Shown here piece by piece: positions 13,223 through 18,682 of a stretch of DNA of 64,000 nucleotides. The first letter of the stretch is position 1. Every line of letters begins with the position of its first letter. Origin of the DNA: a virus. The stretch lies in IMG/VR virus record IMGVR_UViG_3300045988_177309, positions 96,170-160,169 of that record; one strand, 5' to 3'. A model generated the notes under the pieces. That model saw only the letters and a program-made list of their open reading frames with translations, was not told the DNA's origin and did not search any database. Made by a program: the position numbers and the translations under genes.

Positions 13223-15580
13223 TTATACTTTAGTTACAGATATTATTTTTCCTTTGATTAATATATTACCGATAGAAGTTTTACTTACAATAGGAATCTC
13301 ATTTCCTGCAATACATATTGAAGTTTTATCTCCTATAATTAATATATTATCTTCATCGGAAACAAGTGCTGCCGCAACCAATTTTCCCGAAGAAACAGTA
13401 GGCTTATAACAAATCAAACCTTTAGTTCCACGAGTTCCAAAAATCATAGCGTCTTTATGTATACGCTTACCAAGTCCATGTTCTGCAAATACTGCAATAT
13501 TATCATTCATATCGCGTATTGCCATTCCTGCAACAACATAATCTCCCGCTGATAAGTTAATACCCTTAACTCCAATAGTCATACGAGAAGTGGGCGCAAC
13601 TTCCTCTGACTTAAAATTAAGCATATATCCATTAGCAGTAATAAGGCTAATAGGTTCATCTTTAATTAAAGTTACAGACACTAGTTCATCACCGTCGCGC
13701 AAACTAATCGCGCCGATACCACTCTTCTTTTTAGTCTTAATATATTCATTTAATTCAGTCTTTTTTACTGTGCCATTTTTAGTTGTAAAGAAAACATATT
13801 TAGCTTCAGTGTCACGATAAATTGAATACATTATCGCAGGTTCTTCATTCGGTTCCATTGCTATAAGAGATTTTATAGCTTGACCCGCAGAAGTGTTTGT
13901 TCCTACTGGAATATCATTAACCAGTAATCGATACATTCTACCTTGATTAGTAAAAATCATAAGAGAATCAATCGTATTGGTTCTAATAACTGCGCTAGTT
14001 ACTTCAGCTTGTGTTTTTAGACCCTTGCCATTGCGGCGCTGTGCTTTAAAAGAAGAAGCGGGAATACGTTTAATTGTTCCAGCTTCAGTCATTACTACAA
14101 CGCATTTTTCTGGTTCAACATAAGCGATTTCTTTTTCTTCTACTGGAGTTTCTATTTGTTCAACTTTAGTTTTTCTTGAAGAGCCAAATTTATCTGCCAA
14201 TTTCTGGAGTCGAGATAAAAAGATTAATTTTTGCTCATGAGTATTTTGAATAATCTTTTCATATTTTTCAATATTATTAATCAAATCTTTAAGTTCTTGA
14301 TTAAGTTCTATCGCTTCAAGTCGCGCAAGGGTGCCAAGACGCATAGAAACAATAGCTTTACTTTGATTAGGAGTAAATTGATATTTTTGTTCAAGTTTAT
14401 TTTGCGCATCAGCACTACTATCAGATTTTTTAATAAGTATAATTATATTATCAATATCTTCAAGTGCTTTAACAAGACCTTCAACAATTTCTTTACGTTC
14501 TTTTGCTTTTGTAATTTCAAATTCATTTTCTCGTTTTATACAAAGCAAATTATGTTCTATATATAAATCAAGATATTGTTTAAGATTTAAAAGTTTAGGC
14601 GTTTTACTTACAAGTGCATATTGATTAATACTAAAACTTTTTTGTAAATCAGTCGCTACAAAAAGCTTATTTAAAACTGTCAAAGGCGCCTTAGAACATT
14701 GTATTTCTATAAGCAGATGTTTTTTATCACTTTTGTTAATAATGTCTTCGATACCAGTAATTTCTTCCTTTTCAACAAGTTCTTTAATTTTTGTAATCAA
14801 AGGTTCAACATAAGTTTGATAAGGAAGTTCTGATACAAGAATATTATTTCCTTTTATTTCAGTTTTTGCGCGAATAACAACTTTTCCTTTGCCAGTTGAA
14901 TAAATTGTTGGAATTTCTTTTTTATTAATTATTATTCCACCTGTTGGATAATCAGGAAAATAATTTTCAGTATTCAAAATTCCAGAAGAAACATACTTAT
15001 TAATAAGCTCAACGGTTTCTTTCAGATTAAATAATGACCAATGATTAGCTACAGCAACACCTATACCTTGAGAGCCATTAATTAATAGTCTGGGCAATAC
15101 TGCAGGAAGTACTTCCGGCCACTCTTTATCTTCTGAGAAATTAAGTATCATAGGGACATTTTTCTTCTTAATACCCTCAAACATACCCTGCTCAATAGCG
15201 GCATTAAGCCTAGCTTCAGTATATCGCGAAGAGGCAGCTTCTGGGCCAATAACTTGATTACCGTTTGACCCATGAAAATCTACTTCTGGAATATTGTTAA
15301 TCCACGATTGGCTCATCCTCACAAATGTGTCATATATGGCTTGATCTCCATGAGGCCACCAGTCAGCTATTACCCCACCCGCAACTTTGGCACTTTTTAC
15401 ATGGGGTTTTGTTGAAGAATATCCTTTGGTATAAAATTCCCAAAGACACGCTCGCTGCCCAGGCTTTAAACCATCTCGCGCATCAGGAAAGGCACGCTGA
15501 CTATTGGCTTCATATGCAAAATCTATAAAATTTTGATGTAATTCTTTTGTAATATCAATAGACATCGTTTGCTTCCTCAC
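13223..15580 (-). CDS. type IIA topoisomerase A subunit (GyrA/ParC/T4 gp52-like)
   Basis: Motifs match the GyrA consensus: RAFPDARDGLKPGQRACL, KSAKVAGGVIADWWPHGDQAIYDTFVRMSQ. 785 aa. Confidence 0.9.
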   Translation of the reverse strand: MRKQTMSIDITKELHQNFIDFAYEANSQRAFPDARDGLKPGQRACLWEFYTKGYSSTKPHVKSAKVAGGVIADWWPHGDQAIYDTFVRMSQSWINNIPEVDFHGSNGNQVIGPEAASSRYTEARLNAAIEQGMFEGIKKKNVPMILNFSEDKEWPEVLPAVLPRLLINGSQGIGVAVANHWSLFNLKETVELINKYVSSGILNTENYFPDYPTGGIIINKKEIPTIYSTGKGKVVIRAKTEIKGNNILVSELPYQTYVEPLITKIKELVEKEEITGIEDIINKSDKKHLLIEIQCSKAPLTVLNKLFVATDLQKSFSINQYALVSKTPKLLNLKQYLDLYIEHNLLCIKRENEFEITKAKERKEIVEGLVKALEDIDNIIILIKKSDSSADAQNKLEQKYQFTPNQSKAIVSMRLGTLARLEAIELNQELKDLINNIEKYEKIIQNTHEQKLIFLSRLQKLADKFGSSRKTKVEQIETPVEEKEIAYVEPEKCVVVMTEAGTIKRIPASSFKAQRRNGKGLKTQAEVTSAVIRTNTIDSLMIFTNQGRMYRLLVNDIPVGTNTSAGQAIKSLIAMEPNEEPAIMYSIYRDTEAKYVFFTTKNGTVKKTELNEYIKTKKKSGIGAISLRDGDELVSVTLIKDEPISLITANGYMLNFKSEEVAPTSRMTIGVKGINLSAGDYVVAGMAIRDMNDNIAVFAEHGLGKRIHKDAMIFGTRGTKGLICYKPTVSSGKLVAAALVSDEDNILIIGDKTSICIAGNEIPIVSKTSIGNILIKGKIISVTKV

Positions 15581-15902
15581 TATATTTTAATATATATTCT
15601 TTGCGCGGCTGAGTACTTGGCCCCATGAAAGTTTCAAAAAGTTTTTCAGTTTCTATGGCATCTTTCACTGTTATTTGTTGAACATTACGAGTTGCAGGTT
15701 CAAGCAAACATTCACCTAATTCATGTGAATCTTGTTCTCCTACGTAGAATCCATTATTTCTAATGGTACTGACTATTTCTTCTAATATAATAAAATATAT
15801 TAGCCTACCGTTTCCCAGTGTGTACCAATAACACCAGTACTTCCCAACAACGGGAATAGTCGATACAGGTTTAGGATAGTTCTTCCCACTCTGCCACTTC
15901 AT
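15555..15902 (-). CDS. GyrB C-terminal tail fragment (T4 gp60-like small topo II subunit)
   Basis: The C-terminal ~70 aa (RNNGFYVGEQDSHELGECLLEPATRNVQQITVKDAIETEKLFETFMG...) align to the extreme C-terminus of GyrB (IQRYKGLGEM...VTVKDA...LMG). The first ~50 aa have no homology. The ORF overlaps the end of the HE gene. Confidence 0.65.
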   Translation of the reverse strand: MKWQSGKNYPKPVSTIPVVGKYWCYWYTLGNGRLIYFIILEEIVSTIRNNGFYVGEQDSHELGECLLEPATRNVQQITVKDAIETEKLFETFMGPSTQPRKEYILKYSEEANDVY

Positions 15903-16935: not shown

Positions 16936-16939
16936 TCTC

Positions 16940-18682
16940 TTACCCTTTATTTCGATTAATTAAATATTTTTCATTTGCATGTTTCTTTTTATATTCCTCT
17001 AGTTCATTGTTGTCCCTAAGATAGATATATTCATTTTTCTTAGTTGTAACCCTGAAGAGAGGAGGAACTGTTGCATATATATGTCCATTTATAACAAGCT
17101 CAGGACAAAGCTCCCAGAACAGTGTGAGTAGAAGATTCTTAATGGCCTCGCCATCAGGATCCGCATCTGCAGCCATCATGATTTTACCATATCGGAGTTT
17201 GCGCTCGTCATAAATCATTTTGGTTTTTTTTGCATCAAAATCCAAACCCAAAGCTTTTATTATATTTACAACTTCTTGATTCGTTAAAAGTTTTTCAGAA
17301 GTACATTTTCTTGCACTGATAATTTTTCCACGTATTGGAAATATAGCCTGGAACTCAGCATTTCTTGCCCCAACCAATCCACTTGCAGCGCTGTCACCCT
17401 CTGAAATAAAAAGCTCACATTCCGCGCGATTTTTGCTCCAACAATCAACGAGTTTAGTGGGAAGATTTAAAAAAGTTTTTCCTTTTTTCTTGCCTTCAAT
17501 ATTGCGAGCTGCATCCTTAGCCTTTTTTGCGTTTTCTCTAGCTTTACGAGCCAAAAGTGCCTTATCAATAATTGCCTTCGCATCTTTAGGGTGGCTATCA
17601 AGCCAAGTCCGCAGATCTTTTGTTACGAGACGTTGAACAATTGTACGGGCTTCAGTTGAACTAAGAACATCTTTTGTTTGTCCTGAGAACACTGGATCAG
17701 GCATAATAAAAGAAAGAACTAATACAAGACCTTCTTTCAACTCATCGCCAGTTATATTACTATCTTTTTCTTTTAATAGATTATTAGAACGAGCATAATC
17801 ATTTACAGATTGTGTAAGTGCAGTTCTAAAACCCGTGAGATGTGTACCACCACTATTAGGAATTGAATTAGTATAAAGCTTATAAGTGTCTGCATAAGTA
17901 TTATTATACAACATTGCGATCTTTACACCAATTCTATCTTCAATAGTTTCAGTATAAAAAATTGAAGTTAAAGCCTCTTTGTTTTTATTTAAAGCTTCAA
18001 TATAATCAAGAATGCCTTTTTGGGAGGTTATTATTTCAGTTTCTTTATCTTTATATTGAAACTCAAAAACCAATCCAGGAGACAAATAGGCTAATTCTTG
18101 AAGTTGTTTTCTCAAAAGATTATAATCAAGTTCTATTCCCTCTTTAAATATTTCCTCATCGGGCTTAAACTTAATTATAGTAAAATGATCTGATTTATTT
18201 TTATAATTGGTTTCTTTATAATTTTGAAGTATTCCTCGTTTAAATACAGCTTGAGCTTGATGACCGCCTCTAACTGAGGTTACTTGAAATATTGAGCTAA
18301 GTGCATTTGTCGCTTTAGCACCAATTCCATTCATGCCTCCTGAAGTATTGTAACCTGTTTTACCTGCCGCATCAAATTTTGCGCCAGTATGAAGTTTAGT
18401 AAATATATTTATTAATACCTCTGAACCATCTTCAGCTTTACCAAAAGGAATACCACGTCCATTATCTTCTACTGTAACAATATCATCATTAGAAACAGTA
18501 ATTTTACAAATTGAACATGCTCCCGCAAGATATTCATCAATAGCATTAGAAATTATTTCAAGAGTAATATGTCTTACGCCTTCCGGTCCAACACTACCAA
18601 TATACATACCACTTCTTAATCGAATAGCTTCTATGCCTTCAAGGGTTTTAACATCTTTTATGCCATAATCTACATTAGACAT
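16940..18682 (-). CDS. type IIA topoisomerase B subunit, large N-terminal part (GHKL ATPase + TOPRIM; T4 gp39-like)
   Basis: Bergerat ATPase motifs, then ELFISEGDSAASG and the DADPDGEAI TOPRIM motif. The ORF ends ...YLINRNKG-TAA exactly where GyrB has YRIQRYKG. Confidence 0.9.
   Translation of the reverse strand: MSNVDYGIKDVKTLEGIEAIRLRSGMYIGSVGPEGVRHITLEIISNAIDEYLAGACSICKITVSNDDIVTVEDNGRGIPFGKAEDGSEVLINIFTKLHTGAKFDAAGKTGYNTSGGMNGIGAKATNALSSIFQVTSVRGGHQAQAVFKRGILQNYKETNYKNKSDHFTIIKFKPDEEIFKEGIELDYNLLRKQLQELAYLSPGLVFEFQYKDKETEIITSQKGILDYIEALNKNKEALTSIFYTETIEDRIGVKIAMLYNNTYADTYKLYTNSIPNSGGTHLTGFRTALTQSVNDYARSNNLLKEKDSNITGDELKEGLVLVLSFIMPDPVFSGQTKDVLSSTEARTIVQRLVTKDLRTWLDSHPKDAKAIIDKALLARKARENAKKAKDAARNIEGKKKGKTFLNLPTKLVDCWSKNRAECELFISEGDSAASGLVGARNAEFQAIFPIRGKIISARKCTSEKLLTNQEVVNIIKALGLDFDAKKTKMIYDERKLRYGKIMMAADADPDGEAIKNLLLTLFWELCPELVINGHIYATVPPLFRVTTKKNEYIYLRDNNELEEYKKKHANEKYLINRNKG

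Follow-up and report, generated by a model that had tools for sequence, protein, structure and literature searches.

Group I introns that carry GIY-YIG endonucleases in the DNA-metabolism genes of phages are textbook mobile elements. The td intron of phage T4 belongs to subgroup IA2; the open reading frame (ORF) for its GIY-YIG endonuclease is looped out of P6a with the ribosome-binding site paired in the RNA, and translation of this endonuclease, I-TevI, is restrained through RNA structure over that site. In this study, we analyzed the gyrB gene in a stretch of viral DNA of 64,000 nucleotides (nt), positions 96,170 to 160,169 of IMG/VR record IMGVR_UViG_3300045988_177309 (hereafter the window, to which all coordinates refer). 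We conclude that this gyrB is very probably interrupted by a mobile group I intron (16941..15743, minus strand) inside the invariant KG/LGE motif (the slash marks the insertion site here and below), and that it is one gene whose transcript is spliced. The support for this conclusion comes mainly from exact intron boundaries, a restored reading frame, intron-less and ORF-less alleles, a covarying fold, and an intact endonuclease domain. The original prediction for this locus had proposed that invasion by an endonuclease gene created a split of the T4 gp39/gp60 type and had ranked an intron-borne endonuclease with splicing as less likely. A GIY-YIG element indeed occupies gyrB, but the gp39/gp60-type split is refuted by the group I boundaries and core, and the option ranked second is favored by the boundaries, the core, and the intron-less alleles.

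The window intron shares with td/I-TevI its size (approximately 1 to 1.2 kilobases (kb)), its location in an essential DNA-metabolism gene of a phage, an endonuclease N-terminal domain homologous to I-TevI, an endonuclease ORF looped out of P6a, extra P7.1 and P7.2 hairpins, and probably a paired ribosome-binding site for the endonuclease. Phage introns of subgroup IA, that of td among them, typically have hairpins P7.1 and P7.2 between P7 and P3'. By contrast, the host gene encodes thymidylate synthase in T4 and is gyrB here. Over the catalytic domain, the window endonuclease and I-TevI are only approximately 30% identical, and the C-terminal DNA-binding part of the window protein is either unrelated or unrecognizable.

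The T4 39/mobA/60 locus resembles the window in that a GyrB-family gene is interrupted by endonuclease-carrying DNA and the A-type partner subunit is encoded by a separate gene. However, the two breaks lie at different positions: T4 gp39 aligns to residues 10 to 480 of the window GyrB and gp60 to residues 483 to 631, which places the T4 split approximately 100 residues upstream of residues 580/581. The KGLG motif is intact inside gp60, whereas the break in the window cuts KGLGE. The T4 pieces are translated separately, and the mobA endonuclease is annotated as a free-standing, defective HNH enzyme; the window insert is instead a ribozyme with a complete group I core, and its downstream gene piece has no conserved start.

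In uncultivated gut phages of the crAss-like and Jug groups, many genes, essential ones among them, are split by group I introns and endonucleases, and splicing in Jug phages has been confirmed by metatranscriptomes (PMC12880540). Borges et al. described an endonuclease with stop-codon recoding that is encoded by a group I intron within an early gene of Agate phages (bioRxiv 10.1101/2021.08.26.457843). The host genes named in these papers are terL, nrdD, and DNA polymerase, not gyrB. Like the Agate phage gene, the endonuclease genes of the relatives of the window intron contain in-frame TAG codons, but the window gene itself has none. A phage group I intron at a gyrB site was not described in the literature searched. 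A blastn search against GenBank phages gave no DNA match to the locus; the closest GyrB protein among them was 39% identical and the closest endonuclease approximately 30%.

Results

Splice sites and intron-less alleles of gyrB

An ORF check bore out three originally predicted ORFs, all on the minus strand: a gyrB-like ORF of 580 amino acids (18682..16940), an endonuclease ORF of 290 amino acids (16743..15871; 873 nt), and an ORF of 115 amino acids (15902..15555). A gap of 196 nt separates the first two, and, also as predicted, the endonuclease gene ends inside the small ORF, with which it shares 32 nt. The proposed domain identities were confirmed by Pfam, in which the large ORF contained HATPase_c, DNA_gyraseB, and Toprim domains, the middle one a GIY-YIG domain, and the C-terminal half of the small one the GyrB C-terminal domain.

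The end of gyrB exon 1 reads, as RNA, ...AAU AAA GGG U/AA GAG AUA GUC UG GCCCUU.... The exon sequence AAGGGU (16947..16942) is able to pair with GCCCUU located 13 nt downstream, forming a U.G pair just before the apparent TAA stop codon, an arrangement that marks the 5' splice sites of group I introns. The called gyrB ORF extends 2 nt into the intron, so that the T at the exon end and the AA of the intron together make the stop codon (16942-16940). The 3' end of the intron reads ...CCAUUAGAAAUAAUGGAUUCUACG/UA GGA GAA CAA..., with G as the last intron base. Exon 1 (16942..18682) therefore encodes residues 1 to 580 and supplies the first base (T) of codon 581, and exon 2 (15555..15742) begins with the TA that completes this codon and continues with GEQDSHELGE... 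through the stop codon. Because U and UA make UUA (Leu), the joined protein reads ...YLINRNKG-L-GEQDSHELGE..., regaining the universal KGLGE motif of GyrB in a predicted spliced product of 642 amino acids.

The Pfam domain DNA_gyraseB_C was continuous on the joined protein (residues 571-631, profile positions 2-62, 55.9 bits). The small ORF alone scored 41.8 bits with a match from G55 (profile position 13), which is the first residue of exon 2, and profile positions 2-12 fall in exon 1. The GyrB tail thus resumes at G55 rather than at I47 of the small ORF, where it had been thought to do so, and the part of the small ORF free of GyrB homology comprises approximately 54 N-terminal residues, close to the approximately 50 in the original prediction.

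A protein search with the 642-residue prediction returned 13 clusters of 642 amino acids (98-100% identity), 27 clusters of 580 amino acids, which are interrupted, and two clusters of 508 amino acids, which are doubly interrupted; identities across all three classes were 96-100%. The insertion point was identical across the interrupted, near-identical alleles. A single site that is occupied in some near-identical alleles and empty in others is a footprint of homing. The uninterrupted P0001 (642 amino acids) differed from our prediction at 3 of 642 residues and was identical at the junction, and P0014 was identical to the product of the exon-1 ORF.

The contigs encoding P0001 and P0007 (L002, L003, and L004) allowed the comparison with relatives lacking the endonuclease, and they contain the exact ligated junction. 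Their gene neighbors match those of the window (PIN-PhoH, PG-binding, a 108-residue gene, gyrB, gyrA, and ligase), and their flanks have 94-99% DNA identity to it. These intron-less alleles read ...AATAAAGGGT/TAGGAGAACAAG..., and in the DNA alignment the 1,199 extra nt of the window sit exactly between T16942 and T15742. The boundary is unambiguous because the ends of the insert share no base with the flanks. The terminal base of the intron is G15743 in the window and G in every homolog displayed; in the set of 37 introns described below, the 3' end was found by requiring a terminal G, so this set is not an independent test of omega-G.

Group I ribozyme core

The internal guide sequence GCCCUU (16923..16928) forms P1 with the exon end and is followed by the 5' half of the ribozyme (16744..16922), which contains the P3 5' strand CCUAC, P2, P2.1, P4, P5 (approximately 90 nt), P4', P6, and the P6a 5' strand AGGAUGG. 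The endonuclease ORF occupies the P6a loop. The 3' half (15743..15879) comprises the P6a 3' strand CUAUCCU (15879..15873, overlapping the endonuclease stop codon), P6, J6/7, P7 (GACUAU, 15861..15856), P7.1 and P7.2, the P3' strand GUAGG, P8, J8/7 with P7' (AAGAAAUAGUC, 15781..15771, located by the Rfam match and a motif search), P9 (CCAUUA-GAAA-UAAUGG, 15766..15751, with a GAAA tetraloop), and the terminal G. All core pairings were intact in the window copy.

A covariance model search over the insert gave a match of Rfam Intron_gpI (RF00028) to the 3' half (15750-15890; 17.1 bits, E = 0.021, 5'-truncated, below the gathering score), picking out P7, P3', P8, J8/7-P7', and P9. An ORF-less homolog of 259 nt at the same site in L006 matched the model over its full length (37.3 bits, E = 1.2e-7).

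Covariation was analyzed in an alignment of 37 distinct homologous intron cores, from which the ORF loop had been removed, using 69 pairs defined from the window sequence in P1, P2, P2.1, P3, P4, P6, P6a, P7, P7.1, P7.2, P8, and P9; in the controls, the 3' partner was slid by 1 to 3 columns. MAFFT alignment of the artificially joined P6a was unreliable (56% paired) and was replaced by duplex folding of each sequence. The 69 pairs were 91.9% canonical, compared with 36-48% in the slid controls, and compensatory double changes were present in 46 of them, compared with 17-27 in the controls. P3 and P9 were both 100% paired, with compensatory changes in 4 of 5 and 5 of 6 pairs, respectively, and P7.2 was 98.8% paired with such changes in all 7 pairs. 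P1 covaries with the exon in relatives (GGGU with GCCC versus GGAU with GUCC); its U.G pair was invariant in 37/37 homologs, and the adjoining pair was GC in 35 and AU in two. RNAalifold, applied to six natural ORF-less copies, independently recovered the same helices (72 pairs, 24 of them compensatory). The P5 extension of approximately 90 nt (16790-16880, minus strand) is AT-rich with internal motifs of the GGUGAG/GGUUAA type; it is common to the window, L001, L005, and L007 and is absent from the ORF-less copies.

The endonuclease and P6a

The N terminus of the endonuclease matched Pfam GIY-YIG (PF01541, E = 3.2e-9), and its first 90 residues aligned with the catalytic domain of I-TevI (PDB 1mk0/1ln0, E = 5.5e-11), conserving GIY...YIG, the arginine of IERRY at R27, the glutamate of DERERFW at E75, and NGYN. 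Residues 195-224 gave weak matches to HTH_23 (E = 0.01) and HTH_28 (E = 0.08), both below the cut-off. In the window and its closest relatives, the Shine-Dalgarno sequence AGGA of the endonuclease gene lies within the P6a 5' strand AGGAUGG, which pairs with CUAUCCU, that is, with the last codons and the stop codon of the same ORF. In the homologs, the segment just beyond P4'/P6 formed a stem with the last part of the endonuclease ORF; the median z was -4.1 against shuffled sequences, and z was below -2 in 23 of 31. Several other homologs, judged by eye, have a local hairpin instead (UUAUCUCC...GGAGAUAA; unscored), which would cover GGAG. By analogy with I-TevI, this arrangement suggests that translation of the endonuclease may be held back for as long as the ribozyme stays folded.

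Between the window and L001, the endonucleases have only 63% amino acid identity, compared with 96% protein identity for the flanking gyrB exon-1 region. From these sequences, this contrast suggests that the endonuclease ORF, or the whole intron, may have been exchanged between lineages.

The 115-residue ORF and the proposed duplicated codons

The small ORF is coding only in its last 61 codons, which are exon 2. Codons 1-54 read through P6a', P7, P7.1/7.2, P3', P8, P7', and P9, and they are open by chance. Of 36 homologous introns, 30 lack an in-frame ATG ahead of exon 2, and 16 of them have a frame that closes one codon short of the junction. In L001 (96% amino acid identity), the frame is open upstream of exon 2 but contains no ATG. 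Because the start of the ORF is unconserved, a separately initiated small subunit is not a conserved feature, and separate translation of the small ORF was rejected.

Approximately six codons had also been reported as duplicated at the two sides of the junction. The supposed second copy, ATTAGAAATAATGGA, is the P9 hairpin (15766..15751), and its comparison with ATTAATCGAAATAAAGGG gave a local score of 8, a value that 8.8% of random 40-nt pieces of the AT-rich window attain; the duplication was accordingly rejected by this background test. In relatives, P9 reads CCAAUA-GAAA-UAUUGG, CUUAUG-GUGA-CAUAAG, or CCGCUA-GAAA-UAGCGG; it is always paired and unrelated to the exon, and its sequence changes freely where the exon stays fixed. 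The resemblance between the exon and P9 is a coincidence in AT-rich sequence.

Distribution of the intron family and TAG recoding

The gyrB site was also occupied in L001, in L005/L008, and in L007, the latter three with GyrB at 72-73% amino acid identity, and two pattern scans of IMG/VR recovered the gyrB-site family widely. After parsing, 36 distinct introns were located at the same GyrB position, in forms of approximately 1.0-1.2 kb and approximately 240-280 nt and in diverse exon contexts (...YQVSRLKG/LGEMS, ...FSVNRNKG/LGEMD, ...YEITRAKG/LGELD, and ...EVQYFKG/LGELD). The core motif pair GTATCGACTA...AAGAAATAGTCAG was present in 77 IMG/VR stretches (loci L009-L122), and the gyrB-type 5' motif in 58 stretches on contigs of 4-380 kb, nearly all of them at the GyrB KG/LGE codons. 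The window intron can be described as one lineage of a very successful family specialized on these invariant codons, represented in uncultivated phages of high divergence by at least 36 different versions and with an apparent jump to a DNA polymerase III alpha-like gene.

An ORF-less member of the family (245 nt) was found in this DNA polymerase III alpha-like ORF in L012 (2958-3202), and also in L040 and L103, at the site ...YTSRGYG/FNLSHTLAY.... Its guide sequence is identical and P1 has one mismatch; on this sequence evidence, the intron seems to have jumped ectopically to a different conserved motif ending in GGGU. In L006 (approximately 1680-1939) and L125, from which the 508-residue gyrB call comes, an extra ORF-less group I intron interrupts the Toprim DxD motif at AADA/DPDG (Rfam 21.1 bits, E = 0.0088 in L006). 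This intron is absent from the window and lies four codons from the position of the 50-nt bypass of T4 gene 60, which indicates that mobile elements repeatedly target the conserved motifs of this enzyme.

A tRNA with anticodon CUA is encoded in the window (41669-41743, minus strand), and exon 1 of the PIN-PhoH gene (26580-25722, minus strand) contains six in-frame TAG codons. The endonuclease genes of L001, L005, L007, and other loci contain one to eight in-frame TAG codons, mostly at sites occupied by Gln in the window protein; the count for the window gene is zero. The phage appears to read TAG as Gln, and gene calls made with the standard code are therefore fragmented in this phage group. 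In TAG-recoding hosts, the endonuclease would need a phage suppressor tRNA for its translation.

A second predicted intron and other features of the window

A gyrA-like gene (13223..15580, minus strand) lies directly downstream of gyrB, and its start overlaps the end of gyrB; it encodes the partner subunit and supplies the operon context.

The PIN-PhoH gene contains a second insert (25721..20711, minus strand; 5,011 nt) between exons 26580..25722 and 20710..20292, across which the intron-less allele L002 is colinear. From its sequence, we predict that this insert is also a group I intron, with several group I hallmarks. P1 is formed by CUUGGGU and GCUCAAG with U.G at the 5' splice site, the insert terminates in G, and the 3' end contains J8/7-P7' (AAGAUAUAGUC) and a P9 hairpin. 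Rfam Intron_gpI matched 25711..25515, from P3 to P3' (28.4 bits, E = 1.3e-5), and the spliced frame would read ...SARLG/FYPGTRDE..., as in uninterrupted homologs. P8 is a perfect stem of 18 base pairs (bp), extendable by eye to approximately 30 bp, and closes a loop of 4.7 kb with seven ORFs, none of them a homing endonuclease. Two of these ORFs (441 and 461 amino acids) encode radical-SAM/SPASM proteins distantly like peptide maturases, and a third, of 210 amino acids with TAG read as Gln, has a repetitive tail rich in Ser, Thr, and Tyr.

The same layout was found in L001 and L124-L126 (three other samples). Two pattern scans of IMG/VR revealed no relatives of the PhoH intron. A more distant phage (L127/L128) carries the six-gene radical-SAM module as a free-standing unit that lies in no PhoH gene; a transposon with terminal repeats was considered and rejected, as no inverted repeats flank the free-standing module. 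The literature searched contained no report of a group I intron with radical-SAM cargo. To our knowledge, no phage group I intron has been described that carries several genes and, among them, no endonuclease.

A match resembling the twister-P1 ribozyme was located at 59789-59844 (minus strand), between genes for tRNA-Met (59588-59660) and tRNA-Lys (59980-60052). It reached 38.9 bits against a gathering score of 67.2; E was 5.9e-5 when the whole window was searched and 4.8e-7 when the search covered 521 nt. The match retains the conserved elements CGGU.CCAAGCCCG and GAGG but lacks the optional stem.

Discussion

Some observations weigh against an active group I intron in the window gyrB. An Rfam scan of the whole region (13000-19500) gave no intron match, because the 873-nt ORF splits the core, and the 5' half alone gave no Rfam match. 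The Rfam scores of both the window and the L006 introns lie under the 50-bit gathering threshold, with significant E-values; the P6a ORF and the long P5 break up the Rfam model. In addition, the homologs were gathered with patterns taken from the window intron, so that P4 and P7, the latter being the helix that binds guanosine and forms a pseudoknot with P3, could not vary and provide no covariation evidence. These low scores, the unusual P5 insert of approximately 90 nt, and the fact that splicing here is predicted from sequence could also be taken to mean that the ribozyme is dead, gyrB a pseudogene, and the phage dependent on host gyrase. We consider such decay very unlikely, given the intact core pairings of the window copy and the intact frames of the endonuclease ORF and exon 2. 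The exons are evidently constrained, since the three differences from the intron-less allele include no frameshift or stop codon, and intron-bearing alleles are common across many independent samples (27 clusters). Just as unlikely is a split of the gp39/gp60 type, in which the 580- and 115-residue products would be separate subunits translated without splicing. Both pieces are ATG-started ORFs in the standard code, the small one overlaps the end of the endonuclease gene, and T4, according to its annotation, shows that a split large subunit of topoisomerase II is workable. Such a split is contradicted by an insertion with group I boundaries and a covarying ribozyme core, by the unconserved start of the small ORF and the lack of its ATG in L001, and by a T4 break near residue 480 rather than at 580/581; it would also cut the conserved KGLGE and leave a leader of 54 unrelated residues on the small piece, and the duplicated codons cited for it are at chance level and form P9.

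The literature names conserved motifs of topoisomerases and gyrases as targets of inteins and of the T4 bypass cassette, and this site might conceivably hold a group II intron, an intein, or, on the model of T4 gene 60, a free-standing endonuclease combined with translational bypass. All three are extremely improbable, since neither a protein-splicing domain nor a group II domain V is present. Contrary to an intein, the insert has no open frame at either end (TAA at 16942-16940 closes one of them); the region has no reverse transcriptase and no group II match in Rfam; and the 1,199-nt insert far exceeds the annotated 50-nt gap of T4 gene 60. A variant of the intron explanation, which we regard as unlikely, is that splicing is conditional, with a truncated 580-residue GyrB made early or under some conditions and the full-length protein once the ribozyme folds. 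In that case, a 115-residue tail starting at Met-15902 would possibly also be made and could associate with the truncated protein as in T4, and the intron would be a switch on gyrase activity, not a neutral passenger. The description of the window intron as one lineage of a specialized GyrB family is much better supported than conditional splicing.

For the spliced group I intron that we favor, self-splicing, cleavage, homing, and translational control can be proposed from the group I and I-TevI paradigm. The gyrB-gyrA transcript would run through the intron, and the RNA would fold into the P1-P9 core. An external guanosine would attack after U16942, paired with G in P1, and the freed exon would then attack after the terminal G15743. 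Ligation of the exons would give an mRNA for the 642-residue GyrB (...INRNKG-L-GEQD...), which would work with the GyrA encoded just downstream. The I-TevI-like endonuclease would be translated from the P6a loop, possibly with a delay imposed by the position of its Shine-Dalgarno sequence in the P6a stem, and would presumably cut intron-less gyrB alleles of co-infecting phages, the predicted substrate being ...AATAAAGGGTTAGGAGAAC...; double-strand-break repair would then copy the intron into the cut allele.

The gyrB intron involves no new mechanism, and the neighboring 5-kb PhoH intron with its radical-SAM cargo is more surprising. For annotation, gene callers give a truncated GyrB of 580 amino acids (27 clusters at at least 96% identity) and an orphan ORF of 115 amino acids, where the real product would have 642 amino acids. 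With its interruption at the universally conserved KG/LGE motif, gyrB joins the phage genes colonized by group I introns, and the dozens of divergent uncultivated phages that carry endonuclease-bearing and ORF-less forms of this intron are a resource for studying the life cycle of introns and their endonucleases and the choice of target sites.

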